A stretch of DNA of 48,786 nucleotides, taken from NCBI GenBank assembly GCA_002320485.1, contig DCKW01000050.1:1-48786 (forward strand), read 5' to 3'. A model generated the notes under the pieces. It was given only the letters and a program-made list of their open reading frames with translations, had not been told where the DNA came from and made no database searches. Below are positions 16,354 through 37,164 of the stretch, in pieces; the first letter of the stretch is position 1, and each line of letters starts with the position of its first letter. Origin of the DNA: Micavibrio sp. UBA1664 (GTDB lineage: Bacteria > Pseudomonadota > Alphaproteobacteria > Micavibrionales > UBA1664). Made by a program: the position numbers and the translations under genes.

Positions 16354-17328
16354 CAGCTTTATATAGACCAAATCAACACGTATATCGATCCGATGGTTCC
16401 GCGTGAAACGGCAATCATAACGCACGGCCATGCCGATCATGCCCGTTTCGGCCATCAAAAAGTAATTGCCACCCCTGAAACAATTGCCATTATGAAGGCC
16501 CGTTACGGCGACAATTGCGCGCAGGAATTTCGTCCTCTTCCCCTAAGGCAGACTATGCGAATGGGAGAAATTGACATTACGCTTTATCCCGCAGGTCATG
16601 TTCTGGGAAGCGCGCAAGTGCTTTTAAATGACGGACAAACACGTATCGTTGTGACGGGCGATTACAAACGGGGAAAGGACTCAACATGCGCCGATTATGA
16701 AATTGTTCCGTGCGATATTCTGGTTACCGAGGCAACGTTCGGCCTGCCTGTTTTTCAACATCCCGACCCGCGTGTTGAAATTCAAAAATTATTGCAATCG
16801 GTCAATAACAATCCGGATCGCGCTCACCTGATTGGTGCCTATGCCCTTGGCAAGGGACAACGTGTTATCAAATTACTACGTGAGTCGGGTTACGATAAAA
16901 CAATTTATTTGCATGGGGCGCAGCGTAAGTTATGTGATCTCTACCAAGCGCACGGGATTGATCTAGGCGTTCTTGAAAATGTCGGAAACCGTAAAAAAAG
17001 TGATTTTGCGGGGGAAATTATTGTTGCGCCTCCCAGTGCGATCAAGGATAGATGGTCCCGCCGTTTTCCCGACCCTGTCATTGCCATGGCCAGCGGATGG
17101 ATGCAGGTTAAACAACGCGCTCGGCAAAAAGGTGTGGAATTGCCTTTAATCATTTCAGATCATTGCGATTGGAACGAGTTATTGCAAACCATTCAGGATA
17201 CGGGGGCGAAAACGATCTGGGTCACGCATGGACGCGAAGATGCCCTTGTCCATTATTGTCAAACGCATCTAGGACTTGAGGCCGAACCCTTGTCGATACA
17301 GGGCTTGGGCGAGGGAGAAGACGAATGA
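16336..17328 (+). CDS. ligase-associated DNA damage response exonuclease (metallo-beta-lactamase/beta-CASP fold)
   Basis: It has the HxHxDH motif (ITHGHADHARFGH) and is 330 aa. It is translationally coupled (ATGA) to the ATP-dependent ligase. Confidence 0.85.
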   Translation: MTFLNHQLYIDQINTYIDPMVPRETAIITHGHADHARFGHQKVIATPETIAIMKARYGDNCAQEFRPLPLRQTMRMGEIDITLYPAGHVLGSAQVLLNDGQTRIVVTGDYKRGKDSTCADYEIVPCDILVTEATFGLPVFQHPDPRVEIQKLLQSVNNNPDRAHLIGAYALGKGQRVIKLLRESGYDKTIYLHGAQRKLCDLYQAHGIDLGVLENVGNRKKSDFAGEIIVAPPSAIKDRWSRRFPDPVIAMASGWMQVKQRARQKGVELPLIISDHCDWNELLQTIQDTGAKTIWVTHGREDALVHYCQTHLGLEAEPLSIQGLGEGEDE

Positions 17329-22500: not shown

Positions 22501-23573
22501 CGAATATCCCCTGCTATCGCATCAATACTGTATGTATCATAGCCCAAGGCCGTCTGGTTATTATCGGAAGTCACTGTGTAAGTCACCGGAAAATAGACTG
22601 GCCTTTGGCCTGCCGCACCATTTTGGCCGTTTCCTAACCTTTCCCATATCTCGAAATTTGGAAACCCTTGTGTACGGATGTAATTTTCAAATTCCGCGCG
22701 TTGCGGTAGCATCACCTTTTGATTCCATGATAATGATTGAATACCAGGATATGTATCTAATAATTTACCCGAAAAATTACGAAATTCTTGGTCTGTTACT
22801 TCATCGGAAGACATAACGAATTGTGCGTTGGCAACAAGAATATCAAAATACCCTTGCAAATTTTTCTCGAACACATCGACAATTTCATTGGCGCTGTTTT
22901 TAAACTCATCCAGCCTTTTTTGCTCAACGGTATTTTTTGCACCGATAAACAGGAAAATGGCCATGGCAGCGAATAGGCTTAATGGAATAACGACAATGGT
23001 TTTTCGTAAAATACTAGATGTGGGGCTGGCTAAGATTAAAATGACCGGCGCAAAAAGCAAGACACCTATCGTATCCCCCACCCACCACGTAAACACGTTA
23101 ATAGAAAATGCCTCAGGCGGAAGGACACCTGATAAATATAATACAGCCGGACCTATCGTTGCATTAATCAGGCATGAGACAACGCCGCCGAAAAACAAAA
23201 GGGCAAAGATATCTTTTTCCGATCTCAAAATGGTCGGATCATTCACTTTCACCTTTACCAACCTACCGCCGCAATAAGCTTGCAACATAGCACCGAAAGC
23301 GATTCCCACCGCCACGATAATGGATTTAAATTCAGTGATGTCCGCTCCGTTAGAAGAGGCAACGAAAAAATTGATAATCAATGATCCTGCAAACACGGCC
23401 GGCAACATCTTTCGGCCGCCCAATAAAACGCCGGCAAGGGCAACACCCGCCGCAGGCCATACCGGAGAGGCAAATCCCGGCGGAATTGCCAACATAAGGG
23501 ACAAACGACCCACACAAGCATAAGCTGCCGCCAACATTAAGAATTTTAAAACGAATATTACAAATGTTCTCAT
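19503..23573 (-). CDS. hybrid sensor histidine kinase/response regulator (MASE1-CHASE-TM-periplasmic domain-TM-PAS-HisKA-HATPase-REC)
   Basis: MASE1-like N-terminus (GFASPVWPAAGVALAGVLLGG, ~8 TM). CHASE-like block (PGIQSLSWNQKV...PVYFPVTYT...ALGYDTYS). PAS domain. H-box FLANMSHEIRTPLNG, N-box GNAVKF, G-boxes DTGIGI and GGTGLGL. REC has DIVLMDCMMPVMDG and SKP. Confidence 0.9.
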   Translation of the reverse strand: MRTFVIFVLKFLMLAAAYACVGRLSLMLAIPPGFASPVWPAAGVALAGVLLGGRKMLPAVFAGSLIINFFVASSNGADITEFKSIIVAVGIAFGAMLQAYCGGRLVKVKVNDPTILRSEKDIFALLFFGGVVSCLINATIGPAVLYLSGVLPPEAFSINVFTWWVGDTIGVLLFAPVILILASPTSSILRKTIVVIPLSLFAAMAIFLFIGAKNTVEQKRLDEFKNSANEIVDVFEKNLQGYFDILVANAQFVMSSDEVTDQEFRNFSGKLLDTYPGIQSLSWNQKVMLPQRAEFENYIRTQGFPNFEIWERLGNGQNGAAGQRPVYFPVTYTVTSDNNQTALGYDTYSIDAIAGDIRSKTLDRARDESAVMATSRISLVQAENEYGIIFYNPVYGISSTLNDVIARRENLIGYTAGVFIVRKMMEPVFNLLKQKNMILVMQDLSAKQNNILYDTRSSDFKENPHHPPVSQNRIQTKINVSVAGHEWEMHFIQNDTKSALSYNWSLWYILIVGLMFSGLLGAMLLIISANTENARRSYVRGQGESALYIIPVMAGMLTFAIAGLTYVQMAQEEKSLVVKSLTDELDSVKKAVNNTIRYTIIAQRRMALRWQSRNGIPENEWNAEALNLLNDTQALTTLQWVDRDFHVRWVQPLEKNENIIGLDVTFNGERRTLIEEAMTPDTITMTPPINLVQGYKAIICYIPLYPNQSFDGFITGIYDLDLFFKNSLSAETREMFNIEISDGKAVVYTQTGEDAARHEGMAIQSDIVFFNRIWTVRVWPTSRFMETQKSYLPLIILLGGMFMSVLIGFAIYYAMAASRQTRLLHIKANELKNSEQQFRTAMENSAIGMALVSPEGKWLTVNVALVEILGYTRDELMNIDFQTITHPDDLEGDLKRLKKILAGDISTYQMEKRYYHKDGHIVWALLNVSTVRDDDGDIIYFISQIQDITQRKEIEIERNLYTTQMEIAREEATRANIMKSEFLANMSHEIRTPLNGVIGAADLLRSNTKITQKQDKYLEAITNSGDTLLSLINDILDLSKIEAGEMDIHPEPVNIHDFMHRIKTIFLPRANAKNILLEFIYKNTIPTLNIDSTRLSQIMTNLLGNAVKFVDQGYIRILLDGETNRSDQFVLNVKVEDTGIGIPQNKLETIFDKFGQADATTTKKYGGTGLGLAISKKLVEMMGGNIDVKSVVGEGTTFTFNIPCDIIEDAIIPTTKKAVQSKTGEDKRVLNARILLVENEFINQMVATDMLESMKCKVDLAQNGQEAIDKVGMANPPYDIVLMDCMMPVMDGFDATKAIRKLEAEGKITHTNIIIAMTANAMAEEKEQCIEVGMNDYLSKPVKTEILYNKIKEYMN

Positions 23574-25443: not shown

Positions 25444-26478
25444 TTATAAGTCAGGGTCGGCTTGTGAAAGTTGCATGCACGCTTTAATGGCCCGCTCAAT
25501 ATGACCGATTTCAACATATGGCACAAAACCTTGGCGGTCCCCCTGCTTCATGCGCTTACATATATTACAAAGTTCCTCATAATGTCCTAGACAGGCTTTA
25601 GCAGCAAGGATACTAATTGCCCAATTGCCCGGCATTGATAGCGGTAACTCGCTAACCTCTTGCAACTCTGCTTTCATATCACGCTGCTGCAATTGCTTAA
25701 AAACATTTTCGAAATCCGAGCGAACATCCGATAATTTTATATCTTCTGCCTCTAGAGTGGCGTCAATCATCACTATTTTTAAAGGGAAAAATTTTTCTTT
25801 TTCATCATTAATTATACTGACTGCTTCCAAATACCGTGCAGGAATAACATTTTCGCCCCAATATAAGGTCATTTTGTTTGATGATTTCCTTATACGCGGG
25901 GAGATTTCAAACACCTTGTCATCTTGCGAAAGAGTGGCAAAACGTGACCCGCCATCAGGATCACGGTGTAACATCCACCCCTTCTCTTTTAAAAAATTGA
26001 ATACATCTTTGTTTGTTATGGTTTCCTCAAAGCGATCGTTAAGCTGGCTAAGCAATTTCTTAATATCTTTGGGGAGTCGTAAGGGCATACTACCCGTTTC
26101 ACTGACATTCCAAAACCCAACTTTTTCTTTAAGCGCGGCATCAAGCGTTGCCCTCAACGCCTCCTCAGCGACTGACCATGAAAATTGCAGGTAAATGGCA
26201 TGTTTTCCAATAACATATTCGGTAATACATGCCTCGTCCAAATCATCATCCTCATGCATATTGATTGCCGTATCGATCCCTCCGTCAATATGATTCATGG
26301 GCGGATATGTTTTCGATAACCAGGTATAGAATTTTTTTAAAGGAACTGTCGTTTGCGTTAATGATGAATAATCATTTTCCGTTTCATCCCACTGCACGAA
26401 TCTTTTATACCATTCTAAAAATTCGGCATCATCAGAGGGCGTATACTGAGGGTCGAAAACCAGTAAATCAAAGCTCAT
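25444..26478 (-). CDS. hypothetical protein (344 aa), no recognisable family
   Basis: It is the longest ORF in this interval, with ordinary amino-acid composition. The antisense 189-aa ORF is Ser-rich and low-complexity. Confidence 0.5.
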   Translation of the reverse strand: MSFDLLVFDPQYTPSDDAEFLEWYKRFVQWDETENDYSSLTQTTVPLKKFYTWLSKTYPPMNHIDGGIDTAINMHEDDDLDEACITEYVIGKHAIYLQFSWSVAEEALRATLDAALKEKVGFWNVSETGSMPLRLPKDIKKLLSQLNDRFEETITNKDVFNFLKEKGWMLHRDPDGGSRFATLSQDDKVFEISPRIRKSSNKMTLYWGENVIPARYLEAVSIINDEKEKFFPLKIVMIDATLEAEDIKLSDVRSDFENVFKQLQQRDMKAELQEVSELPLSMPGNWAISILAAKACLGHYEELCNICKRMKQGDRQGFVPYVEIGHIERAIKACMQLSQADPDL

Positions 26479-26566: not shown

Positions 26567-26926
26567 TTGAAAAAACTATCGCACAGCATTATTTTAATCG
26601 CATTTTTCCTGCAGACTTTAATCCCTGTGGGATTTATGCCCGTTTTTGCAAGCGACGGTACAACCATTACAATCTGTTCCGGAATTACCGGCGAACCCAA
26701 ACAAATACAGCTTGATGATGCTCCTGCCGACAACCATGAAGATAAAAGCGTTTCATATTGCTCCTATTTTGGCATAGGCACTTATACGTGCGTATCAACG
26801 TCTGTTTTGGTAAAGCTTGATCCATCATACGTACTCTCAAATACAGGTATAAGCGAAATATTTATTCAGCAATCTGTTTATCTATCTAACCAATCAAGAG
26901 GGCCTCCGCATTTTTCTCTGACTTAA
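26567..26926 (+). CDS. secreted small protein, DUF2946-like (tentative)
   Basis: TTG start. The N-terminal hydrophobic segment followed by LIPVGFMP.....TITICSG resembles the DUF2946 pattern seen next to metal-uptake genes. Assignment is from memory only. Confidence 0.35.
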   Translation: MKKLSHSIILIAFFLQTLIPVGFMPVFASDGTTITICSGITGEPKQIQLDDAPADNHEDKSVSYCSYFGIGTYTCVSTSVLVKLDPSYVLSNTGISEIFIQQSVYLSNQSRGPPHFSLT

Positions 26927-26961
26927 AAATATTCAATTAAATTTTATTACGGAGAAATATT

Positions 26962-27732
26962 ATGTGTAGATGGCACAAACTAGCGGCGAAAGAGGCTGCA
27001 ACCAATCCTCATACAGGCGAATTCAATGTCGGTCATTATGCCGTGGCATTAACCGCCATGAGCCAATTCAGAGTAGAGCAGGATAAATGGGGACTTCCTC
27101 AATTATTTGCAATTGACGGGTTTAATCCGGAGGAAATTTTACCTGCCGACAAAATGCAGGCCTTTGAACAATCAGGTTTGAACAAGCCCGTTCATGATGC
27201 CCAGCGCGATTTACAAATCAACATTGCCATCATGCGTCATGCATTGGAGGAAACAGGATTCATGCATGACATGTCGGTCGACGCATTGAACATTCAGGAT
27301 CGCATTACAAAAGATGGTTATAAAAAGACATGTTGCGCAACGCCCAATCCGCGGGATAACGGTCCGTTTCTGGATGCCGCAGTTGTCTATCTTGTTAAAG
27401 GATATGATGATGCCGAAAGATCGTATGCCAGTAAGGATTTAACACTTGTGTCCTCGCATGAGCTTGAGACCATGACTAGCGACACCACTGTTTCCGCAGA
27501 CGACCGCAAACACCTCCCGCTGCTTCACGGTATTCGCAATGCTGTTGAATCCTTCTTGGAGCAACCGGGCGTACCCAAGGCTCTTGAACAGGCATTTGCA
27601 AACACAATACCTGTAATTTTTCAAATGGCGGAAAGTGATTTAAAAGCAGGGCGCGCCCTTACCGGTAAAAGCGATTGTATTATGTGCGAAGGCACAAAAG
27701 GCCGCCAACCTAACGCGTTCAAGTTAGGATAA
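26962..27732 (+). CDS. hypothetical Cys-containing protein (256 aa)
   Basis: ATG with a GGAG RBS. It contains a CC pair (KKTCCATPNP) and a C-terminal CIMC. No family recognised. Confidence 0.5.
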   Translation: MCRWHKLAAKEAATNPHTGEFNVGHYAVALTAMSQFRVEQDKWGLPQLFAIDGFNPEEILPADKMQAFEQSGLNKPVHDAQRDLQINIAIMRHALEETGFMHDMSVDALNIQDRITKDGYKKTCCATPNPRDNGPFLDAAVVYLVKGYDDAERSYASKDLTLVSSHELETMTSDTTVSADDRKHLPLLHGIRNAVESFLEQPGVPKALEQAFANTIPVIFQMAESDLKAGRALTGKSDCIMCEGTKGRQPNAFKLG

Positions 27733-27735
27733 ATC

Positions 27736-28131
27736 ATGGCCAAAGAGACTATAACCAGAAGCCCGTTAGTCGCGGGCTTCATGGCCGTTGCAATAGGATT
27801 GCAATCACCTGCGGGTCATGATGCCGTTTATCAGGGCTTATTACGTATTAGGTTTGCACCCCAATGGATCGTAGCCATGCGCCAGACAGGCGAACCGATG
27901 CGTTTTGAAACCTTCAAAAACAGTGATATGTTACAATTCTGGATATACGATCCAAATCCTGATGTTTTTCTAAATAACATGCGTTTGCTAAATGAAGATT
28001 TTTCATTTTGTTTGCCCTTTGTAAATAACACTGAAGACCAGCCAAAGGTGCCTCAAAATTTCTTTGCCTGCCATGCGCCTGCATTACGCGAGGAAAAACA
28101 AAAAAATAGAATGCGGCTTGCATTTAATTAA
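27736..28131 (+). CDS. hypothetical protein (131 aa)
   Basis: It starts 3 nt after the preceding stop, so it is tightly coupled. No family recognised. Confidence 0.45.
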   Translation: MAKETITRSPLVAGFMAVAIGLQSPAGHDAVYQGLLRIRFAPQWIVAMRQTGEPMRFETFKNSDMLQFWIYDPNPDVFLNNMRLLNEDFSFCLPFVNNTEDQPKVPQNFFACHAPALREEKQKNRMRLAFN

Positions 28132-28151
28132 CTGTGATATTATAACATAAC
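28129..28151. promoter_or_regulatory. Zur-box-like palindrome
   Basis: TAACTGTGATA-T-TATAACATAAC compared with GAAATGTTATA-N-TATAACATTTC matches at 17 of 22 specified positions. It ends 20 nt before the ATG at 28172 (RBS AAGGAG at 28159-64). Confidence 0.5.
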
Positions 28152-28171
28152 AAAAATAAGGAGAAAAATTT

Positions 28172-29149
28172 ATGAGAATTGCATTTTGCGGAAAAGGCGG
28201 AAGCGGAAAATCAACTGTGTCATCATTGATGGCAAAATATCTGGCATCAATGAATAAGGATGTTTTGGTCGTTGATGGCGATATTAATCAACATCTGGGT
28301 CAGGCGCTGGGATTTTCAGACGATGCGCTAAAAGAGCAACCCAAATTAGGCATGTCCCCGGAGGTTTTAAAAGAATTTGTAAAGGGCACAAACCCCCGCA
28401 TTCCTGATGCATCTTATATTACGGAATCGTGCCCTGCAGGACGTGGTTCAGGATTAATTCATTTTAATGAAACCAACCCGGTTTTCGATCATTACCAGCT
28501 ACAACAGGACGGCATCCGCTTCATGGCAATCGGCGGCCATGATGATAGTGATATCGGCACCACCTGTTATCACAAATTTACGGGAATTTTTGGTGTATTT
28601 CTAAATCATCTTATAGATGGCCAAAACCAATATCTGATCGGTGATATGTGTGCGGGCGCAGATCCGTTCGCATCATCAGGTTTGGCCTCGCGTTTTGATG
28701 CGGTTTTTCTGGTTGTTGAACCGACCGTGAAATCCACCAGTGTTTACAAACAATGCCGTGAGTATGCGGATATGTTTGACACAAAATTGTTTGTTATCGG
28801 CAACAAAATTGAAAATAAATCCGATATTCATTACATCCGTGAAAAAGTTGGTGACGATTTGATTGCTTGCCTATCCAAATCGGACTTTGTTCGTGATTTT
28901 GAAAAAGGTATCGCAAGACCGCTATCGGAATTAGAGACCGAAAACAAAGACGTGCTTGACCTGATCTTACAAAAGACGGATAGCCTGAAAAAAGATTGGA
29001 ATAAATATCAGGAAATCGGCATGCGTTTTCATAAATCCGCCGCCGAAGGCTGGGGAAATGCGATGTACGGAATTGATATGATGGGATTTGTTGACCCTGA
29101 ATTTTCTTACGAAGATGTCATCCAATCTAAATCAAAGAAGGCCGCTTAA
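28172..29149 (+). CDS. CooC/MinD/ParA-class P-loop ATPase (putative metallochaperone-type)
   Basis: Deviant Walker A is CGKGGSGKST, followed by VVDGDINQHL and a Walker B-like YLIGDMCAG. It has a CooC-like layout with C-Y-H (28565-28573) where CooC carries its C-x-C metal site (aligned by eye). Confidence 0.7.
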   Translation: MRIAFCGKGGSGKSTVSSLMAKYLASMNKDVLVVDGDINQHLGQALGFSDDALKEQPKLGMSPEVLKEFVKGTNPRIPDASYITESCPAGRGSGLIHFNETNPVFDHYQLQQDGIRFMAIGGHDDSDIGTTCYHKFTGIFGVFLNHLIDGQNQYLIGDMCAGADPFASSGLASRFDAVFLVVEPTVKSTSVYKQCREYADMFDTKLFVIGNKIENKSDIHYIREKVGDDLIACLSKSDFVRDFEKGIARPLSELETENKDVLDLILQKTDSLKKDWNKYQEIGMRFHKSAAEGWGNAMYGIDMMGFVDPEFSYEDVIQSKSKKAA

Positions 29150-29157
29150 GCGGCCTT
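29138..29157. terminator. hairpin between convergent genes (stop codon in loop)
   Basis: AAGGCCGC-ttaa-GCGGCCTT is a perfect 8-bp stem. The flanking T-run is weak. Confidence 0.55.
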
Positions 29158-29158
29158 T

Positions 29159-29863
29159 CTATTTATAAGCACTGCAAATATCAAGCTGTGTGTAATTCTC
29201 GTAGTGAATGGGCATACTCTTAACGTCAATATTTTTGAAACCAACGGCCTTTATCGCATTTTCCATCATTTCAGCTGTTGGTGATAAAGTTCCTTCAATC
29301 TTATATTGTTGCATTTCAATAATGTCGTCTGTTTCCCTGTCGTAAGGGCTAGAGACACTTAGGAAAAGGCCGTTTTCTTTTGTAAAATCATAAGCAGTTT
29401 GCATTGCGATTAATAATTCGTCATAGCTATCAACAACGGGTAACGACTCATTCGCCATCACGATATCATATTGCTTATCAGGCTTATCTTTCAAAAAATC
29501 AAAAACTTTTACTACATCTAGTTTTTCAATAAGCTGCTTCTCAATGAGTTCTGGTGATGCCGTTATAATATTATTGTCATACAAATAATTTATAAAAACA
29601 GGATACTTTTTAAGTAGATCACCTGTTTGCCAATTATTGATTGTATTTTTGAATAACTGAATAGCTTCTGAGCTAAGATCATAACAGGAATAGCTTTCAA
29701 CACGTTCTATATAACCCATCGCCCAATAATGTCCAATTGCGTGCGATCCTAGATCGCATACAGTTCCATGATCAATGCGTTTAATAACATGCTTGATTAC
29801 ATCAGCAAAATATACCGGCATGTTTTCTTCGCTAAACGCAAATTTTTCATATTCTTCATGCAT
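29159..29863 (-). CDS. class I SAM-dependent methyltransferase, NNMT/PNMT/TEMT-like
   Basis: The motif I region is GTVCDLGSHAIGHYW. The acidic post-I residue is in SCYDLS. YDIVMANESL and GLFLSVS follow the NNMT-like order. Family call is from memory. Confidence 0.55.
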   Translation of the reverse strand: MHEEYEKFAFSEENMPVYFADVIKHVIKRIDHGTVCDLGSHAIGHYWAMGYIERVESYSCYDLSSEAIQLFKNTINNWQTGDLLKKYPVFINYLYDNNIITASPELIEKQLIEKLDVVKVFDFLKDKPDKQYDIVMANESLPVVDSYDELLIAMQTAYDFTKENGLFLSVSSPYDRETDDIIEMQQYKIEGTLSPTAEMMENAIKAVGFKNIDVKSMPIHYENYTQLDICSAYK

Positions 29864-29890
29864 AATAAGCCTTTTTTGAACTTTACAAAT

Positions 29891-29913
29891 AAAATGTTAT
29901 GTTGTAACAGTAT
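29891..29913. promoter_or_regulatory. Zur-box-like palindrome in the divergent promoter region
   Basis: AAAATGTTATG-T-TGTAACAGTAT compared with GAAATGTTATA-N-TATAACATTTC matches at 16 of 22 specified positions. It ends 23 nt upstream of the ATG at 29937. Confidence 0.45.
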
Positions 29914-29936
29914 CGTTATACAGGAAAATTAGTATA

Positions 29937-31391
29937 ATGAACGCTAAAATTAAAAAAACATCAAAAAATAACTTACAATCTGTGCCCTATCGGTTGCATC
30001 CCAAGATGCATCCTATGATAAGGGAGGTTATGGAACAAAAAGATTTTATTTTTTATTTGATGAAGAAATACGGATCACCTTTAAATCTGATTTTTCCGCA
30101 AATATTTCGCGAAAAATATGAATTATTCGATCAAATGCTGAGGGGTGAACATCTCAATTATCGCCTTTATTACACGTGCAAACCTAATCGTTCCAATGCC
30201 CTTTTGCGCGAGGCTGCCGAATTAGGCGCCTATGTTGATGTTAGCTCGCACGGTGAATTTCAGGCAGCGTTGCAAGTCGGAATTGAGCCTGAGAAAATCT
30301 CAGCGACAGGCCCAAAAAATAAAGTCTATATGGATATTATTATCGAGAATCAATCCATGTGTGTAATTGATAACTGGCATGAACTAGAATACATTTCAAC
30401 CTATGCCCGATTAGGGCAACCTGTAATGGTGCGTTTATCAAAACCATTAATAAACAGTGCCGTATCCGATGATACTTTTGGCCTGCCCTACAATGAATTA
30501 AACCAAATAATTCAAACAATTAAGAACACTGCTACATTGGATTTTTATGGTTTTGCAGTTCATTACAATTACCGAACAGAAATAAATGTCGCACATATCG
30601 AAACTGTCGTGTCAGCAACCTTGCAAGCCTTTGAAGGCGGCTTGTCGCCAAAGGCTGTAAATATTGGTGGTGGGTATCTGGTTCGGTATGTTGATTGTAA
30701 AGATGACTGGAATGATTTTATAAATCACATAAAAGGGTCTTTAAAGGGTAACAATGAGCCGGTTACATGGGATGGGAACGGAATGGGGTTTCGTTTGCAA
30801 AACGGTACTGTTATTGGAACGGAAGGCTTTATGAATCATTGCGAGCCCGTGACATGCGAAAACCATCTTGAGAAAGTGTTGTACAGCACATTAGAGTGTT
30901 TGGACGGCACATCCCTATTAGATTTTATAAGAGATAGTGGTTTGGAAATATATGTTGAACCTGGACGTGCCTTAATGGATCAATGCGGCGTTACACTTGC
31001 CAATGTTGAATTTACCAAAAAATCATCCAAAGGGAACCTACTGGTTAATCTGGATATGCATTACGCCAATTTAAATGCACACACTTTTAAATATATGGCA
31101 GAACCTGTTTTAATCCATCGCAATGATAATCTGCCTCCCAATCAAGAAGGTGTATATTATTACGGCTCGCTGTGTTTTGCATCTGACCTGATTACCTTTC
31201 ACAAAACATTTCCCGATTATTTGCCTGAGAATGGCGATATTGCCGCCTTCATCAATACCGCCGCTTATCGCATGGATTTTACCGAATCTGAAATGCTGCG
31301 TCATCCCAACGCCGTCAAGATATGCATCACGCAAAATGACAATCAGTGGATGGAAATAACCGACAATGATTACAAAAAGGATCAATCATGA
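29937..31391 (+). CDS. type III (alanine-racemase-fold) PLP-dependent decarboxylase, Orn/DAP/Arg decarboxylase family
   Basis: YGSPLNLIF and the PLP-lysine context YYTCKPN (consensus YAxKAN) are present. Also DVSSHGEF, GGGY and EPGRALMDQCG. Confidence 0.8.
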   Translation: MNAKIKKTSKNNLQSVPYRLHPKMHPMIREVMEQKDFIFYLMKKYGSPLNLIFPQIFREKYELFDQMLRGEHLNYRLYYTCKPNRSNALLREAAELGAYVDVSSHGEFQAALQVGIEPEKISATGPKNKVYMDIIIENQSMCVIDNWHELEYISTYARLGQPVMVRLSKPLINSAVSDDTFGLPYNELNQIIQTIKNTATLDFYGFAVHYNYRTEINVAHIETVVSATLQAFEGGLSPKAVNIGGGYLVRYVDCKDDWNDFINHIKGSLKGNNEPVTWDGNGMGFRLQNGTVIGTEGFMNHCEPVTCENHLEKVLYSTLECLDGTSLLDFIRDSGLEIYVEPGRALMDQCGVTLANVEFTKKSSKGNLLVNLDMHYANLNAHTFKYMAEPVLIHRNDNLPPNQEGVYYYGSLCFASDLITFHKTFPDYLPENGDIAAFINTAAYRMDFTESEMLRHPNAVKICITQNDNQWMEITDNDYKKDQS

Positions 31392-32689
31392 TTGTTGAGA
31401 AAATAACCGATCTCATCGGCAATACACCGATATTGAAAATCGCATCAGATGTGCATGGCTTGCCGAATATCAATCTATACGCAAAACTGGAAATGATGAA
31501 TCCGTTCGGATCTGTTAAAGACCGTATTGCGTGGGAAATGCTCAAAGATGACTTGGGTGATATTGTTGCAAATAATAAATTGATTGTAGAAAATTCAAGT
31601 GGCAATACCTCTAAAGCAATGCAAGCCATAGCAGGAATATATGGTGTGAATTTTAAATTAATGTCTGCTATTGCAAAAGTTCCTGAGCCTATAGACATCA
31701 TGCGCATAATGGGTGCCGATATTGAGGAGTTAACGCAAGCCGGATCCGATTGTTTTGACCCGAACGACCCGAACGATCCGCAATATCTTATTGAGAAATT
31801 TATTGAGCAATCCGAAAGACAGGTTTTTTTCACTTCTCAGTTTACCAACGAAAAAAACTTAAAAGCTCATAGAGAAACGACCGCACCGGAAATTTTAAAT
31901 GATCTTGACTGCGTTGATTGGTTTGTAGGCGGCCTTGGAACGACCGGGTCATCCCGTGGCATAATCGAAACCATTAAGACACGCGACGCCCATATGAAAG
32001 CTATTGGAGTTTGTGGTGCCGCAGGTGAATTAATTCCAGGTATACGCGCTAGCGAACAATTGGTTGAAGCGGGCTTTTATGAACGGAAAATTTATGATGA
32101 AATGATTACACTTTATGCTAAAACAGCCGTTGATAATATGTTGGAATTAAATCATAAAAGCGGATTACTTTGCGGGCCGTCCACTGGCGCGCAATATGCC
32201 GCCATCAAACACTATTTCACTGACAACCCTGTATCGACCGAAACCAATGTGGTCTTCCTCGCCTGTGACCGAATGGAATGGTATATTTCCTACATCAAAA
32301 AATATCGCCCTGATATTTTCGGTTTGAAGGATAATACATCCGTCATGGCATATTTCATTAACAAACAACAAGCCAGTCAATGCCAGATAGCACCGGACGT
32401 TATAAATAAATGGATTGATCAGGAGCAACCTTTTATCGTTGATATGCGCACACCTGCATCACTGAAAATTTTGAGCTTTGAAGGGGCGATCAATATCCCT
32501 GAAAAAACGTTGGAAGATATGATTGAAAAACAGCAGCCTTTCCCTAAAGGGAAGAAGGTTTTATTCATCTGCGCGGTGGGACAGAAATCTTTAAAAATTG
32601 CGTCTTACCTTCGCGATAAAGATGTAGATGCATACTCTCTGGAGGGCGGTGTTGTGGCTTATCAAGATAATAAAAGGCGCGTGGCCTGA
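31388..32689 (+). CDS. cysteine synthase/SbnA-like PLP enzyme fused to a C-terminal rhodanese domain
   Basis: PALP fold motifs: GNTPILKI, KLEMMNPFGSVKDR (PLP Lys), SSGNT, GTTGS. The C-terminal ~95 aa form a rhodanese domain (IVDMRTP...GAINIP...VLFICAVGQKSLKIASYL..EGG) that retains the active-site Cys. Confidence 0.8.
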   Translation: MIVEKITDLIGNTPILKIASDVHGLPNINLYAKLEMMNPFGSVKDRIAWEMLKDDLGDIVANNKLIVENSSGNTSKAMQAIAGIYGVNFKLMSAIAKVPEPIDIMRIMGADIEELTQAGSDCFDPNDPNDPQYLIEKFIEQSERQVFFTSQFTNEKNLKAHRETTAPEILNDLDCVDWFVGGLGTTGSSRGIIETIKTRDAHMKAIGVCGAAGELIPGIRASEQLVEAGFYERKIYDEMITLYAKTAVDNMLELNHKSGLLCGPSTGAQYAAIKHYFTDNPVSTETNVVFLACDRMEWYISYIKKYRPDIFGLKDNTSVMAYFINKQQASQCQIAPDVINKWIDQEQPFIVDMRTPASLKILSFEGAINIPEKTLEDMIEKQQPFPKGKKVLFICAVGQKSLKIASYLRDKDVDAYSLEGGVVAYQDNKRRVA

Positions 32690-33297
32690 TGCTTACCCTT
32701 GGTGCCATCCAATATGAAATCGGCGGCAAAACTATATTGAATGATGTGTCTTTGTCGTTGGGGGGAAATGATCGCCTTCTCATTCATGGACCGTCAGGAT
32801 GCGGGAAATCGACGCTCATGCATATTATGGCGGGTTTATTAAAACCCACATCAGGAACAGTTGCTTTCAAAGGTCAGGAATATGGCGATTTGACAGGTGT
32901 GCAACTTGATACATTACGTGGCAATAACTTCGGTTTCGTATTTCAAAAAATGCACCTTATCAGCCATTTAACGGCCCGGCAGAACATTGCGCTTGCCGGG
33001 TCTCCGGACAGGGAGATTGCTCAAGATCTCGGCATTGTCAATCTTATGCACCAAAGGACATCATCTTTAAGTGTGGGGGAAAGTCAGCGTGTGGCGATTG
33101 CACGTGCGGTTGCCAATAATCCCTCCATTATTTTTGCCGATGAGCCGACCTCCGCACTTGATGCATATAATGCCGATAAGGTCATGACCATGCTTTTTGC
33201 CCAAGCTGAAAAACATGGCAGCGCCCTTGTGGTGACCAGCCATGATGAGCGCATTCAGGCTCGCTTTGATAATACATTGGGCCTAAATCATGAATAA
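32689..33297 (+). CDS. ABC transporter ATP-binding protein (MacB/LolD-type)
   Basis: Walker A is GPSGCGKST. Signature is LSVGESQR. Walker B is IIFADEPTSALD. The H-loop is TSHD. Confidence 0.9.
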   Translation: MLTLGAIQYEIGGKTILNDVSLSLGGNDRLLIHGPSGCGKSTLMHIMAGLLKPTSGTVAFKGQEYGDLTGVQLDTLRGNNFGFVFQKMHLISHLTARQNIALAGSPDREIAQDLGIVNLMHQRTSSLSVGESQRVAIARAVANNPSIIFADEPTSALDAYNADKVMTMLFAQAEKHGSALVVTSHDERIQARFDNTLGLNHE

Positions 33298-34528
33298 TTT
33301 CACCTATATACTCTCGTCCCTTAAAAGCCGTTTATTGGGAAGCATCTTGACCGTGCTGCTTACGGCCTTTGGTGTCGCAATGGTGTTGAGCGTTCTCCTT
33401 TTCAGCCACCATGTTCAAACACGTATGAACAAAGATTCGCAGAATGTTGATCTTGTTATCGGTGCGAAGGGCAGCCCCCTGCAAATCATTCTGTCATCCG
33501 TTTACCATATCGATATTCCAACCGGTAATATCCCATGGGATGATGCCCAACAGTGGATGAGCCATCCGCAAATAAAAACGGCAATCCCGCTTGCATTAGG
33601 TGATAATTGGAAGGGATATCGCATTGTCGGCACCACGCCCGATTATCTCACCTTCTATCAGGCATCTCTTAAAAAAGGTGAAATTTGGGATCATGCTTTC
33701 GAGGCCGTTATCGGTTCAAATATTGATCTAGATATAGGTGATGAGTTCATCGGCGCGCATGGATTGATGGATGGCGGGCATGTACATGACAATGAAAATT
33801 ACAAAATTGTCGGACAGCTTGATAAAACGGGCACTGTTTTGGACCGATTGATTTTAACATCCCTCGATAGCGTTTTAAAAATTCATGGGCTGGAAGGGGT
33901 TGAGGACGGGCACAGCCACGATCATAACGATCATCATTACCATCACCACGCGCATGGAGAGGAGCATGACCATCATCATGAGACCGCAGGCGAACCCGAA
34001 ATTACCGCTCTCCTCCTCCAAAAAAAAACGCCGCGTGCCAATATGCAACTACCCTATTTGATTAATCAGGATGGAGCATTACAGGCGGCCAACCCTGCCA
34101 TGGAAATGGCACGTCTGACCTCGATGCTGGGCGTAGGCACAAAAACCTTAACGGCACTATCGACACTTCTTATGATCATTGCCTGTTTCAGCATATTTGC
34201 CGGAATTGCCGGCACATTGGAAAACAGAAAAACCGATCTTGCGGTGTTACGGGCACTAGGATATTCCCGCGCTCGAATATTCAGCATTATCGCGGGGGAG
34301 GGTCTTACACTTGTGTTCATAGGGGCCGTTACAGGTGGATTATTATCCGTCATCGGCTTTACTTTCCTGATAAAAACGATGCCGTCTTTATCGGCCAGCG
34401 GCGCAACATACCAGATTATACCCGAAATGCTGTATGTCTATGGTGGGGCACTGCTGGCAGGGGTAATTGCCGCAATCATTCCGGCTTATCGTGCTGCAAA
34501 AGTTGATGTTGCACGTCAACTCGCCTAA
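33290..34528 (+). CDS. FtsX/MacB-type ABC permease with histidine-rich periplasmic insert
   Basis: TM1 is followed by a ~250-aa extracytoplasmic domain and a C-terminal FtsX-like 3-TM bundle. The His tract HSHDHNDHHYHHHAHGEEHDHHH lies at 33911-33979. Confidence 0.8.
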   Translation: MNNFTYILSSLKSRLLGSILTVLLTAFGVAMVLSVLLFSHHVQTRMNKDSQNVDLVIGAKGSPLQIILSSVYHIDIPTGNIPWDDAQQWMSHPQIKTAIPLALGDNWKGYRIVGTTPDYLTFYQASLKKGEIWDHAFEAVIGSNIDLDIGDEFIGAHGLMDGGHVHDNENYKIVGQLDKTGTVLDRLILTSLDSVLKIHGLEGVEDGHSHDHNDHHYHHHAHGEEHDHHHETAGEPEITALLLQKKTPRANMQLPYLINQDGALQAANPAMEMARLTSMLGVGTKTLTALSTLLMIIACFSIFAGIAGTLENRKTDLAVLRALGYSRARIFSIIAGEGLTLVFIGAVTGGLLSVIGFTFLIKTMPSLSASGATYQIIPEMLYVYGGALLAGVIAAIIPAYRAAKVDVARQLA

Positions 34529-34531
34529 ATT

Positions 34532-35062
34532 ATGGATATGATAAAGATTCTACTCCTTGCCGTCGTTTTGGTTACATCCTCCCCTGCCCTTGCATTGGAG
34601 GAGGAACCACCATATTCGACGCAAACACTCACAGATGAGGAAATTGTCGGACAAATCCAAAATTTCACCTCGACACCCGAGGGAGGCGTTGATTGGAAGC
34701 TTTTTTCAGAAACCGAAGACGTGCCGTACAAGGTGGAGAGAGAGGGGCAAGAATGGGAGGGTGTGAAGCCAAAATTTTCCGCTGCTTTAGAAAATCTGGA
34801 TGGGAAAACAATCAAGATGAGCGGATATATGTTTCCTCTGGACCAAACGGCTAAACAATCGCAATTCCTGTTCGGGCCGTTTCCTTTAAGCTGCCCTTAT
34901 CATTATCACGCGCCGAACAGCCTGATTATCGAGGTTCATACTGACAAGCCGATATCGTTCAGTTACGAACCGATTACTCTACAGGGGACATTGGAATTGG
35001 TCCCCGAAGATTACGAATATAATACATTTTATAAATTACAAAGCGCCCGGATAGTTAAGTAA
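34532..35062 (+). CDS. DUF3299-family periplasmic protein
   Basis: Signal peptide present. LENLDGKTIKMSGYMFPLD......FLFGPFPLSCPYHYHAPNSLIIEV....ITLQGTLEL matches the DUF3299 pattern (L.Gk.V.i.GfmvPl...flL.p....C.f). Confidence 0.7.
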   Translation: MDMIKILLLAVVLVTSSPALALEEEPPYSTQTLTDEEIVGQIQNFTSTPEGGVDWKLFSETEDVPYKVEREGQEWEGVKPKFSAALENLDGKTIKMSGYMFPLDQTAKQSQFLFGPFPLSCPYHYHAPNSLIIEVHTDKPISFSYEPITLQGTLELVPEDYEYNTFYKLQSARIVK

Positions 35063-35120
35063 TATTCATACATCATCGGGTATTTTATACGCCATAATTA
35101 TAAAAAATTCAGAAGAGAAA

Positions 35121-35195
35121 TGGTGCCGGCAGCAAGATTCGAACTCGCGACCTTTCGATTACAAATCGACTGCACTACCACTGTGCTATGCCGGC
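35121..35195 (-). tRNA. tRNA-Thr (anticodon UGU), CCA encoded
   Basis: The reverse complement GCCGGCA-TA-GCAC-AGTGGTA-GTGC-A-GTCGA-TTTGTAA-TCGAA-AGGTC-GCGAG-TTCGAAT-CTTGC-TGCCGGC-ACCA folds as a cloverleaf. The 7-nt anticodon loop is UU-UGU-AA. Confidence 0.9.
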
Positions 35196-35220
35196 GTTTA
35201 ATGTCGTTTTGACGAGACAT

Positions 35221-35250
35221 CTTATAATCGATAACGTTTTCCTTTGTCAA
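35221..35250 (-). promoter_or_regulatory. sigma-70-type promoter for tRNA-Thr
   Basis: On the minus strand: TTGACA (35250-35245), 18-nt spacer, TATAAG (35226-35221), about 25 nt upstream of the tRNA 5' end. Confidence 0.45.
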
Positions 35251-35334
35251 ACCCTATTCGACTTTGTTATACAATTTTATTAAAGTATAAAAAAATTAAT
35301 AAACATTGAAGCATTTAAAGGGTAGTATAAATAT

Positions 35335-36591
35335 ATGTCTGGTGGCGGTGGCGGTGACAGTAATGACGGTTTATGGATGTTGTTTTTCATCTTCGCCTTT
35401 TTAGGCGGGGCTCTGTTTGCCATCTGGTTTTTCTTTACCCCGCAGGTTTTGCAAGGATATTTATGGTTGCGGCAGGGTGAGATGGCACTCGCATCACTAT
35501 GGACCGACAATGATTACACGGTCGAGGTTATAACGCCGCGCGGTGTCCAGCCGATGACCTTTGCCGAGGCAAGAAATCTAGTCAACACTGCAACACCCGA
35601 TCAATTGGAAAACCACCCGAATTTATTAAATATTATGCATGCCACGTCTTTGGCGGCGATGAAACCTATGCGCTATTTTTTCGGGCCCTTGTTTCTTTTA
35701 ATGGGGATTTATGCGTTGTTTTACGGCCCGACCAGCCATAACCGCAGAAAATACAATTTGCAAAGCCTGATTCAAGCACAAGCGCAAAGCTTTCCGGCCA
35801 TTGCCCCTATTGTTAATTTCAATCCCTTGACCGATACGAAGCACAGACCGCCTGGAGCCCTTGTTCCTGCCCAACTTCCTTTGTTTGCGGAGGCATTAAG
35901 CCCGGAGGAATGGGCGGCCTTTCATAAAATTCCTATGCCGGACGGTAAAGTTGATCGGGATGCAGCCGACGAAGCCTTTGCTTTGCAACTAGGTGAAAAA
36001 TGGCGCGGGCCACAAAAATTAAAACCATATATGCAGGTGCTTTTGGCGGCCTTTGCCCTAAAAGCCGCACGAAAAAGACTGGAATCCGATCAAATGATGG
36101 GGCAATTGGCCCAATGCTGGAGCCATAATGGCGGATTGAAACTCGACGGCTCCCTCGTTTCAAAAGCACGAAAAATTCTTAAAAACAAGGATATTAGCGG
36201 TGAAACCCTGTCACGATGTAATCATCATGCCTACGTAACAACGGCTCTTCTCGGTGCGCTGGACCTTGCGCGATCCGAGGGCGGCGTTCTGGCGCCGGCG
36301 CAGTTTTTATGGCTGCGCGGACAGGACAGAACATTGTGGTATCCTCTTAATAACCTCGGCCGTCAATCATTTCATGCCGAAGCCATGGGGGCCATGAGCC
36401 ATTATCGGGCGGAAAAACAAGTACAGCGCCCTATTCCGAAACCGATGTTAAATGATGCATATGATGTTATTTCCGCTTATCTTGAAGATAACAAAAAATC
36501 CATGCCGATCCCGCAGGTGGATTTCAGCATGATTAAAAATAAATCCGCGCCGAAGAAAAACAAAGGCGTTATGAAACCCGCAGGGACATAA
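35335..36591 (+). CDS. dotM: DotM/IcmP-like inner-membrane protein (type IVB coupling complex)
   Basis: A Gly-rich N-terminus is followed by a hydrophobic hairpin (LWMLFFIFAFLGGALFAIWFFF...), then a second TM and a large cytoplasmic domain. It is ~400 aa and lies upstream of a DotL-like gene. Assignment relies on architecture and context. Confidence 0.5.
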   Translation: MSGGGGGDSNDGLWMLFFIFAFLGGALFAIWFFFTPQVLQGYLWLRQGEMALASLWTDNDYTVEVITPRGVQPMTFAEARNLVNTATPDQLENHPNLLNIMHATSLAAMKPMRYFFGPLFLLMGIYALFYGPTSHNRRKYNLQSLIQAQAQSFPAIAPIVNFNPLTDTKHRPPGALVPAQLPLFAEALSPEEWAAFHKIPMPDGKVDRDAADEAFALQLGEKWRGPQKLKPYMQVLLAAFALKAARKRLESDQMMGQLAQCWSHNGGLKLDGSLVSKARKILKNKDISGETLSRCNHHAYVTTALLGALDLARSEGGVLAPAQFLWLRGQDRTLWYPLNNLGRQSFHAEAMGAMSHYRAEKQVQRPIPKPMLNDAYDVISAYLEDNKKSMPIPQVDFSMIKNKSAPKKNKGVMKPAGT

Positions 36592-36624: not shown

Positions 36625-37164
36625 ATGACATTTTGTAACGCAAATAAACCTAAAGCACAATTATCGGGAAACAATCTGGTTTTATCCCTTCCTGATGCCA
36701 TGACCCCTGTGGTGTGGATGATCGACACAAAAACAAGCGGCAGCTTTTTCGTGCGGATAGAGGAAGATGCAAACGGTCTTTTTATCCTTCAAAAAATTGA
36801 AGGGACGGGAAAAGAAATTAAAATAGAGGATATTGCCTACTACAAGAACAAGTATTCAGCCACACAAGCCATGAATAAAATCGGTAGAGTGCTCGACAGT
36901 GCCGACCGTCAACCGTCTGCAAAAGGGAAAATTTTTGCAACGGTTTTAATAACAACGATATTCTTGGTTTTATTGGCCTTGGCGGGACTATATGCGCTTG
37001 GAAAAGGGTGGATCAATCCGGGCCAACCTCTGACTGCACCGCAAAATACGGCGCAGCAAAGTGCACCGCCGCCTGTTATCGGAAATACACCTGACGCGGT
37101 TGGTGTCCCGTTATCCGCCGATGAGTATATGAATCAAAACAATTCAGGCGCTTTACCGTTTTAA
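36625..37164 (+). CDS. hypothetical single-TM protein (179 aa) between the DotM-like and DotL-like genes
   Basis: ATG 36625. It has one TM helix (IFATVLITTIFLVLLALAGLYAL) and a Pro/Gln-rich C-terminus. No family recognised. Confidence 0.45.
   Translation: MTFCNANKPKAQLSGNNLVLSLPDAMTPVVWMIDTKTSGSFFVRIEEDANGLFILQKIEGTGKEIKIEDIAYYKNKYSATQAMNKIGRVLDSADRQPSAKGKIFATVLITTIFLVLLALAGLYALGKGWINPGQPLTAPQNTAQQSAPPPVIGNTPDAVGVPLSADEYMNQNNSGALPF

Follow-up and report, generated by a model that had tools for sequence, protein, structure and literature searches.

What could a bacterium gain from a gene island in which two pyridoxal phosphate (PLP) enzymes stand directly before the genes of an ATP-binding cassette (ABC) pump, behind predicted binding sites of the zinc regulator Zur? 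The question is raised by contig DCKW01000050.1 of Micavibrio sp. UBA1664, of which we have analysed positions 1 to 48,786; this whole stretch of 48,786 nucleotides is called the window here. The original prediction had proposed a zinc-starvation metallophore operon of five genes at this place. We have found that the predicted zinc-starvation island spans about 26567–35062 and consists of three modules, as judged from the list of open reading frames (ORFs), Pfam and NCBIfam matches, and neighbourhood comparison. Its core, i.e., a CooC-type ATPase, a PLP decarboxylase and a CysM-like/rhodanese fusion enzyme, probably serves the synthesis of a small zinc-binding molecule. Our best reading, that under zinc starvation the core forms a nitrogen/sulfur chelator derived from amino acids, we regard as evenly balanced between right and wrong.

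Predicted Zur control and the conserved cassette

The first module of the island comprises three small Cys/His-rich proteins (26567–28131). The second is made of a CooC-type ATPase, a divergent methyltransferase, the PLP decarboxylase and the CysM-like/rhodanese fusion, and the third of a DUF3299 protein and a split ABC pump of the MacB type. The features of the second and third modules, with their regulatory sites, are as follows.

28133–28152: Zur box 1 (TGTGATATTATAACA), 14/15 plus an overlapping match (pattern search)
28172–29149, + strand: CooC-family P-loop ATPase (family profile against CooC1, 3kje)
29159–29863, − strand: class I S-adenosylmethionine (SAM) methyltransferase, NNMT/PNMT/TEMT-like (weak Methyltransf_23 match, Pfam matches of homologues)
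29895–29909: Zur box 2 (TGTTATGTTGTAACA), 13/15 (pattern search)
29937–31391, + strand: fold-type III PLP decarboxylase of the ornithine/diaminopimelate/arginine (Orn/DAP/Arg) family, not LysA (Pfam, NCBIfam)
31388–32689, + strand: CysM-like PLP beta-replacement domain fused to a rhodanese domain (Pfam, NCBIfam, alignment, Foldseek)
32689–33297, + strand: ABC ATPase of a split MacB-type transporter, ZrgC/PA4064-like (Pfam, NCBIfam)
33290–34528, + strand: MacB/FtsX-type permease with a His-rich periplasmic loop (MacB_PCD and FtsX)
34532–35062, + strand: secreted DUF3299 protein, ZrgE/PA4066-like (Pfam, PDB 4hsp)

From the decarboxylase to the DUF3299 gene, the junctions are a 4-nt ATGA overlap, a 1-nt TGATG overlap, an 8-nt overlap and a 3-nt gap. 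The ORFs, domains, junctions and tRNA position of the original prediction all agree with the ORF list, Pfam/NCBIfam and ARAGORN, and so does the adjacency of the operon to the tRNA gene and to the Zur-box-preceded ATPase gene. As for the five-gene operon itself, its junctions are exact, but the whole unit is larger and starts at 26567 with the ATPase operon (26567–29149), which is part of the same conserved cassette.

To locate Zur boxes, we have used the 15-mer palindromic core TGTTATAWTATAACA of the proteobacterial type, with no more than two mismatches allowed. Three matches are present in the 48.8 kb of the window, against 0.14 expected, and none of 100 shuffles reached three; they lie where Zur-box-like sites had been proposed. 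Box 1 (28133–28147, with the overlapping second match at 28138) is 25 bp upstream of the ATPase start, and box 2 is inside the 73-bp gap between the divergent methyltransferase and decarboxylase genes. Accordingly placed, the two predicted boxes would govern expression of the ATPase gene and, from their shared divergent promoter region, of the methyltransferase and decarboxylase genes. No box with up to two mismatches is present upstream of the gene of a 119-aa protein at the island start, and no zur gene is found among the window ORFs scanned.

We have then compared the island with its relatives elsewhere. A profile scan of genomes with the fusion alignment gave 80 loci, their lineages being read from the record titles. 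The counts below, unless stated otherwise, refer to the 84 loci first collected, in which the window proteins were compared with all locus ORFs by iterative searches; single loci carry numbers such as L088. Of the 29 Zur boxes in the 81 non-duplicate loci, 22 fall inside the cassette spans, to which 39% of the sequence belongs (binomial p 6e-5), and 20 of these loci have at least one box. The position of box 1 upstream of the ATPase is kept in L006, L009, L015, L019, L025, L033, L050 and L088. L088 has perfect or near-perfect boxes (at 6696 and 8469) at the same two promoters as the window, the gap equivalent to that of box 2 holding a perfect one, and in L011 (two mismatches) and L007 boxes are seen just upstream of the methyltransferase and decarboxylase genes. 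In addition, a Fur-family gene stands beside the cassette in 38/84 loci, and the proteobacterial-type ones tested match Zur best. A Zur-ZnuA-ZnuC-ZnuB set follows about 600 bp downstream of the cassette in L098, and genes of COG0523 GTPases, a family linked to zinc (PMC2770081), are in or beside the cassette in 7 loci. Overall, the conserved boxes, adjacent Zur-like regulators, COG0523 genes and znuABC support the proposed Zur control, i.e., that the island is a Zur-repressed zinc-starvation unit, as far as this can be predicted from sequence.

Across about seven phyla, the decarboxylase and the fusion keep their order and orientation, usually together with the CooC-type ATPase and a SufS-like cysteine desulfurase. 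The decarboxylase gene is directly upstream of the fusion gene in 83/84 loci, the ATPase is present in 58/84, and the SufS-like gene is immediately adjacent in 48. The gene of the 119-aa protein occurs in 16/84 loci, that of a 256-aa protein in 15/84 and a window-type methyltransferase in 6/84, while the ABC/permease/DUF3299 module adjoins the fusion only in a few lineages (window, L006, L008, L088/89). That is, the five-gene set first proposed is conserved in part: the core is the ATPase, the decarboxylase and the fusion, often with SufS, and the transporter module belongs to few lineages. On L088, an 895-kb marine contig, all ten gene families of the island recur, together with one additional 123-aa gene and a Zur gene.

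Other recurrent neighbours, grouped by clustering, are a CrtO/amine-oxidase-like flavin adenine dinucleotide (FAD) enzyme (17 loci, in Obscuribacterales and cyanobacteria), a 443-aa GNAT protein (15), a 514-aa protein (14), an Asp/Asn-hydroxylase-like protein (11), a TehB-like methyltransferase (9) and a BT1/major facilitator superfamily (MFS) transporter (8). Three unrelated methyltransferase types recur among the cassettes, which, like the pumps behind the fusion in different lineages, speaks for tailoring and export of a small molecule. In several loci without the ATPase, a COG0523 gene takes its place in the cassette (L042, L054, L074 and the Streptomyces loci). The latter, L090 (5217–13667) and L091 (7619–12528), are two unannotated Streptomyces linear plasmids from a plasmid collection which were added later; they come from cultured strains and carry decarboxylase, fusion, SufS and methyltransferase genes, to which L090 adds an upstream COG0523 gene and a downstream pyridine-nucleotide disulfide oxidoreductase. 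In L062 (3538–14934), a metagenome-assembled genome of Patescibacteria, the order is Fur, ATPase, decarboxylase, fusion, SufS and COG0523, flanked by terminase-like, DNA methylase, transposase helix-turn-helix and serine recombinase genes, and in L001 (369–2833) the cassette is next to a phage-type integrase and AlpA. Based on these mobile-element contexts in L062 and L001, we regard the cassette as mobile.

Carriers have been found in Bdellovibrionota, Alphaproteobacteria (Micavibrio, Rickettsiales, Rhodospirillales), Gammaproteobacteria, Obscuribacterales/Melainabacteria, a few cyanobacteria, Chloroflexia, Patescibacteria, one actinobacterium and Bacillota. Bdellovibrionota, Micavibrio and Patescibacteria are lineages known as predatory or host-dependent, and one carrier bears Dot/Icm genes, so an antimetabolite or toxin against prey or host, e.g., the lysine analogue thialysine, could be imagined as the product. 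Lanthionine-to-thialysine chemistry would be conceivable for these enzyme classes. On the other hand, the regulation and the neighbours (Zur, COG0523, znuABC, a Zrg-like module) point to zinc, and the carriers also include cyanobacteria, Chloroflexia and Streptomyces, none of them known for predation. We consider a toxin very improbable.

The decarboxylase and the fusion enzyme

The decarboxylase contains an Orn_Arg_deC_N domain (Pfam, E 9e-21), and its PLP lysine K82, the motifs GGG244-246 and EPGR341-344 and the catalytic C413 are conserved in 74 sequences. DAP decarboxylases and BtrK are its nearest relatives, and its score with the NCBIfam lysA model is 112 bits against a cutoff of 298. 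The fusion protein consists of a PALP domain (residues 6–294, E 1e-40) and a rhodanese domain (337–427, E 3e-9), according to Pfam. The PLP lysine, Lys44, is invariant in the alignment of the family, as is the rhodanese Cys395 in 20 fusion sequences, and a family-specific insertion, DCFDPNDPNDPQ, with an invariant Cys122, is absent from CysM. The NCBIfam scores of the fusion are low in every case, i.e., 148 bits against a cutoff of 413 and 139 against 394 for two CysM models, 142 against 351 for cysK, and 146 against 350 for the SbnA-family equivalog TIGR03945. Source databases label the proteins of the cassette generically, as cysteine synthase B, CO dehydrogenase maturation factor or hypothetical protein, and we have found no description of the fusion family in the searchable literature.

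The original prediction had itself named the alternative that these are ordinary lysA and cysM housekeeping copies, here standing beside a zinc transporter. They do share their superfamilies with LysA and CysM. Against this stand the lysA and cysM scores, which miss the equivalog cutoffs by a wide margin, the rhodanese fusion and the insertion which CysM lacks, the conserved pairing, the Zur boxes and the mobile-element contexts, so that on NCBIfam cutoffs and synteny we have rejected the housekeeping identity and leave it next to no probability. Since the scores are so far below the cutoffs, the pairing is kept in 83/84 loci, the junctions overlap and the catalytic residues are conserved, the two genes should belong to a dedicated pathway.

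As to what this pathway does, the AlphaFold2 (AF2) model of the fusion (pLDDT 83) gives a hint. Its best Foldseek matches are 8H4H and 8H4Q (apo, and with O-phosphoserine), structures of the aspergillomarasmine A (AMA) synthase, with a TM-score of 0.62 and about 22% identity; among the match lists these are the only PDB entries with the same PALP plus rhodanese architecture. The AMA synthase is also a significant sequence match of the fusion (E 6.5e-23). In Aspergillus oryzae this enzyme converts O-phosphoserine and L-Asp to toxin A and further to AMA (PMC8829947, PMC11091072), which is a metallophore of Zn2+, Ni2+ and Co2+ (PMC8829947, PMC8319579, PMC11091072). Similarly, Fda4 of Fusarium poae, a PLP enzyme with a rhodanese-like domain, condenses O-phosphoserine with L-Ala to a Ser-Ala conjugate, after which an FAD oxidoreductase releases L-2,3-diaminopropionate (L-Dap); besides the gene for this oxidoreductase, its cluster contains one for an N-acetyltransferase and one for an MFS transporter (PMC12751119).

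The bacterial fusion shares with both fungal enzymes a cysteine-synthase-like PLP domain followed by a C-terminal rhodanese-like domain, and the FAD enzyme, GNAT and MFS proteins of the Obscuribacterales and cyanobacterial cassettes are the same kinds of partners as those of the Fda4 cluster. The differences are also clear: AMA synthase and Fda4 are fungal and come without a decarboxylase, SufS, NTPase or Zur context, and the bacterial family has the invariant DCFDPNDPNDPQ insertion as its own, with a rhodanese loop of the canonical sulfurtransferase type. Through the architecture match, the chelator idea of the original prediction has gained a precedent, though 'metallophore' stays a name that we infer for the product.

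The rhodanese domain deserves separate treatment, since it had been taken in the original prediction as a sign of sulfur chemistry. It aligns with the sulfurtransferases GlpE, 3iwh and TT1651, including the catalytic Cys of the loop, and by this Cys it should be an active-type sulfurtransferase domain. Because the two characterised PLP–rhodanese enzymes form C–N bonds from O-phosphoserine and use no sulfur, however, the domain alone is no proof of sulfur chemistry. Involvement of sulfur is nevertheless kept likely by the invariant Cys, the adjacent SufS and the disulfide oxidoreductase. The SufS-like gene has also been considered as a phosphoserine aminotransferase that supplies O-phosphoserine, and this was rejected (348 bits for SufS against 18 for SerC, with a SufS-type active-site Cys). 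Cyanide detoxification by a beta-cyanoalanine synthase plus rhodanese, taurine or cysteate synthesis, and a bypass of DapE or methionine synthase have been set aside, as the neighbourhoods give them no support.

The partnership with a decarboxylase has its own parallel. In staphyloferrin B synthesis, the Orn/DAP-family decarboxylase SbnH creates an ethylenediamine-type arm. The window follows the SbnA/SbnH logic in that a beta-replacement enzyme is partnered with an Orn/DAP-family decarboxylase, here through the 4-nt overlap, SbnA being a cysteine-synthase-fold enzyme that alkylates an amino-acid nitrogen (PMC12751119). As the original prediction stated, an SbnB-type dehydrogenase and nonribosomal peptide synthetase (NRPS)-independent siderophore (NIS) synthetases are absent from the window genes at 26567–35062 by Pfam and NCBIfam; some distant cassettes have an FAD oxidoreductase in the place of the dehydrogenase. 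Synthesis of ethylenediamine disuccinate (EDDS) by the aes genes of Amycolatopsis japonicum is repressed by zinc through Zur, as the original prediction had stated (PMC9252823, PMC6103462). The staphyloferrin B and EDDS pathways differ from the cassette in that they are not known to include a rhodanese domain, SufS or NTPase. Opine-type zincophore clusters (staphylopine/pseudopaline, cnt/zrm) likewise combine Zur-regulated synthesis of an amino-acid-derived chelator with transporters (PMC7438024, PMC6103462). Zur-regulated synthesis plus transport is common to them and the cassette, the chemistry of which is PLP-based, and no enzyme of the CntL (nicotianamine-synthase-like) or CntM (opine dehydrogenase) type is found among the annotated cassette genes.

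Taken together, a route to a chelator can be proposed. The fusion should perform beta-replacement on an activated serine: its CysM-like PLP domain would make aminoacrylate from O-phosphoserine or O-acetylserine and add a nucleophile. This nucleophile might be an amino-acid nitrogen, as in AMA synthase, Fda4 and SbnA, or sulfur delivered by a persulfide relay from SufS to the rhodanese Cys395. The DAP-decarboxylase-like enzyme would then trim the carboxylate of the new 2-amino-2-carboxyethyl arm to leave an aminoethyl arm, comparable to the action of SbnH, and the methyltransferase could cap an N or S atom. The product would be a small nitrogen/sulfur-donor ligand scavenging or buffering zinc. 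In this genome, the MacB pump with its His-rich loop and the DUF3299 protein may carry the ligand or zinc over the envelope, and the CooC-type ATPase, with its dimer-interface CxC changed to CxH, may handle metal for or with the fusion enzyme.

The methyltransferase of this scheme has a weak Methyltransf_23 match in Pfam and no match by PDB sequence search. Of seven homologues, three match NNMT_PNMT_TEMT (best E 1.1e-6) and two CARME (carnosine N-methyltransferase), which makes the earlier label of an NNMT-like enzyme reasonable, and the gene is at the same divergent position in L011, L015, L025, L050 and L088/89.

Putative metal-handling partners and transport

The CooC-type ATPase is part of the conserved core. 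Its family profile matches CooC1 (3kje) with E 5.5e-29, in two stretches covering most of the protein, and its deviant Walker A, GKGGSGKST, follows the CooC pattern GKGGxGK[ST]. The invariant C132-Y-H134 ('GqtCYH') aligns on 'GSQCYC' of CooC, the metal site at the dimer interface, so that a CxH motif is present where CooC has its metal-binding CxC. The ATPase thus agrees with CooC1 in full-length homology, in the deviant Walker A and in where the metal motif of the interface is placed, and differs in the motif itself and in context, as no genes of CO dehydrogenase or acetyl-CoA synthase have been found in any cassette neighbourhood examined. In every one of its own neighbourhoods examined it stands with the fusion, and its distant members (30–36% identity) again occur only beside the fusion. 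Because L093 has both of them without any decarboxylase, the ATPase seems tied to the fusion enzyme. By genomic role it resembles the Zur-regulated COG0523 chaperones (ZigA/ZagA/ZNG1 type), by which it is replaced or accompanied in some cassettes. The exact protein sequence of the window ATPase is also encoded on marine (Tara) metagenome contigs. We know of no CooC-family member under Zur control, and no Zur-linked CooC-type ATPase is described in the searchable literature.

Several observations weigh against the chelator reading, and some of them start from this ATPase. Its tight coupling, or that of a COG0523 NTPase, to the fusion points to protein metallation, which known metallophore pathways, to our knowledge, do not need, and in L093 the decarboxylase is missing beside the ATPase and the fusion. 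About half of the loci have no adjacent transporter (e.g., L001, L062, L087); no TonB-dependent receptor or importer of a metallophore complex is visible in the window; and the cassette is present in Patescibacteria, with their minimal metabolism. The link to AMA synthase is one of architecture and fold, at 22% identity: in phmmer the fusion scores 85 bits with 8h4q against 110 bits with 5xem and 103 bits with CysM, and its rhodanese part alone, searched against the PDB, aligns with 8h4q only marginally (E ~1.2). Furthermore, sulfur taken by SufS from cysteine for a cysteine product would be circular. Finally, the chelator is a product predicted here from genes.

The strongest rival explanation is an intracellular system for metallochaperoning and sulfur trafficking, with no chelator at all. 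SufS and the rhodanese Cys would mobilise persulfide, and the NTPase would insert metal or build a metal–sulfur site on the fusion or on a client, in the service of an essential zinc-dependent or zinc-sparing process that has to continue when zinc is scarce, e.g., a bypass of Zn-dependent SufU-type transfer, or cofactor making. It is favoured by the full-length CooC relationship with a conserved Cys/His motif at the dimer interface, by the presence of the ATPase with the fusion even where the decarboxylase is missing, by COG0523 in the cassettes without the ATPase (L042, L054, L074, Streptomyces), by the conservation of SufS and an active-type rhodanese, and by self-contained mobile versions without a transporter (L062). 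It leaves unexplained the translationally coupled decarboxylase (83/84), the methyltransferases, the FAD, GNAT and MFS partners, the exporters, and the architecture match to synthases that form a chelator and Dap; nor is a candidate client enzyme encoded. We consider this explanation unlikely, though it deserves to be taken seriously.

Transport bears on a third possibility, namely that the product is a non-exported small thiol or amine (of the cysteamine, thialysine or lanthionine type) acting as a cytoplasmic zinc buffer or as a shuttle to the NTPase chaperones. The enzyme evidence for it is the same as for the exported chelator; many loci are without transporters and pair with cytoplasmic chaperones, and the decarboxylase, closest to DAP decarboxylase, would suit a thia-DAP (lanthionine-like) substrate. 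On the other hand, several independent lineages have an MFS, resistance-nodulation-division (RND) or MacB pump immediately behind the fusion (HlyD and AcrB in L005, for instance), and the operon of the window runs unbroken into its pump genes. This buffer seems to us rather improbable.

Returning to the chelator reading, the pump genes of the window are of a recognisable kind. The ABC ATPase (ABC_tran, E 1e-31) has its best NCBIfam matches among the LolD, FtsE and MacB types. The permease was described originally as His-rich, and it does have 14 His within 40 aa (residues ~191–230, window 33860–33980), in a loop between the transmembrane helices TM1 and TM2. All four cassette-linked permeases (window, L006, L008, L088) carry such a periplasmic loop at the same place, with 14–17 His per 40 residues; those of L006, L008 and L088 differ in sequence while being similar in composition. 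The DUF3299 protein (PF11736, E 2.6e-8; PDB 4hsp, E 4e-4) shares a CP(Y/F)xYH motif with the other DUF3299 proteins of the cassettes.

As anticipated in the original prediction, this is a MacB-type module like that of PA4063-PA4066: ZrgABCDE and PA4063-PA4066 are Zur-regulated operons that encode the ABC ATPase as a protein of its own, next to a permease of the MacB/FtsX type and a periplasmic DUF3299 protein (PMC9817125, PMC11481552), ZrgE being the DUF3299 protein (PMC9817125). The window has ABC ATPase, permease and DUF3299 protein in the same order as ZrgBCE/PA4064-66. Unlike in those operons, the permease itself carries the His-rich periplasmic loop, and the module shares one operon with biosynthetic genes; no Pfam match to ZrgA/PA4063 (DUF2796) or ZrgD (DUF2607) is found among the neighbouring ORFs at 26567–28131. 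The direction of Zrg-type transport is debated: zinc uptake has been described for Vibrio (PMC9817125), and pyochelin-cobalt export for Pseudomonas (PMC11481552). For the window, export is in keeping with a module that closes a biosynthetic operon, and direct handling of metal with the His-rich periplasmic loop. In the unrelated loci L093 (5938–9867) and L098 (5351–6490), a gene for a YibE/F-family membrane protein lies just upstream in divergent orientation; it may be another cassette-associated transporter.

Edges of the island and its meaning

The remaining features are the small proteins of the first module, a terminator and the tRNA at the island edge.

26567–26926, + strand: 119-aa protein, weakly DUF2946-like (ORF list, Pfam)
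26962–27732, + strand: 256-aa Cys/His-rich protein of a rare family (alignment, AF2)
27736–28131, + strand: 131-aa protein with conserved GH, FCLP and ACHA motifs (pairwise alignment with the L088 and L009 genes)
29137–29158, both strands: bidirectional hairpin terminator (9-bp stem, 6 GC pairs)
35121–35195, − strand: tRNA-Thr(TGT) (ARAGORN)

The 119-aa protein has an N-terminal hydrophobic segment and two Cys motifs, and matches DUF2946 with E 0.095 across the whole profile; its homologues stand beside the 256-aa gene. In the 256-aa protein, C2, H5, C124, C125, C239 and C242 are invariant in the alignment. Only 38 homologues are present in 5.8 billion proteins, none of them with a Pfam domain, and the protein itself has no Pfam or NCBIfam match. 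Its AF2 model is confident (pLDDT 90, pTM 0.89) and finds no fold match in the PDB (best Foldseek E 0.58). In some Micavibrio relatives, a membrane segment bearing a His-rich tail is joined to this protein in a fusion. For the 131-aa protein, no Pfam or NCBIfam match has been found, while it shows 24–25% identity to the equally placed genes of L088 and L009 (132 aa and 143 aa).

The terminator sits between the convergent ATPase and methyltransferase genes. In the interval 35062–35335, the island ends at the tRNA-Thr, directly upstream of dotM/icmP, and this tRNA gene could be an integration site. Downstream of it, dotM/icmP (DotM, 35335–36591) is followed by a gene for a dotL-like coupling protein (Pfam, NCBIfam), and because these genes are present, the host of the window should carry a type IVB secretion system. 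Between the two lies a 179-aa ORF (36625–37164) with a C-terminal hydrophobic segment and no Pfam match. On the other side of the island are the genes of a DUF6990 protein (25444–26478, − strand) and of a 1356-aa MASE1-CHASE-PAS hybrid histidine kinase (19503–23573, − strand). Further upstream, at 16336–18899, the gene of a metallo-beta-lactamase-fold/RMMBL protein overlaps with that of an ATP-dependent DNA ligase, a gene pair typical of bacterial DNA-repair ligase operons.

We have found no published description of the cassette in the searchable literature. Zur-regulated chelator synthesis combined with transport is known as a kind, and the CxH CooC-type ATPase and the fold of the 256-aa protein may be new. 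Going one step further, the cassette could represent a new, widespread and mobile pathway for a sulfur-containing aminoethyl-type zinc ligand, together with the first zinc-linked ATPase of the CooC family (CxC to CxH); we hold this only tentatively, leaning towards doubt. Such a pathway may centre on a bacterial counterpart of the fungal AMA-synthase architecture.

If the chelator reading is true, zinc-responsive metallophore synthesis would extend beyond the opine-type (cnt), NRPS-type and EDDS-type routes to a PLP-based and often mobile one, used by predators, symbionts, cyanobacterial relatives, the ultra-small Patescibacteria, actinomycetes and a marine Dot/Icm-bearing bacterium. The cassette would then stand for a new class of zincophore or zinc-buffer biosynthesis and a new class of zinc chaperone, and AMA-like chelators, which attract interest as inhibitors of metallo-beta-lactamases, would become available from bacteria. 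In addition, the cassette would offer a testable role for a CooC-type ATPase outside carbon monoxide metabolism, and the genetic context could help to decide between ligand export and zinc import by MacB systems of the ZrgBCE/PA4064-66 type. The three cassette-linked Cys/His-rich proteins, one of them with a confidently predicted fold that has no solved relative, would become new candidates for zinc handling. Even if the chelator idea fails, the Zur-controlled unit of ATPase, decarboxylase, PLP–rhodanese fusion and SufS, kept in so many lineages, would still be part of the bacterial response to zinc starvation.

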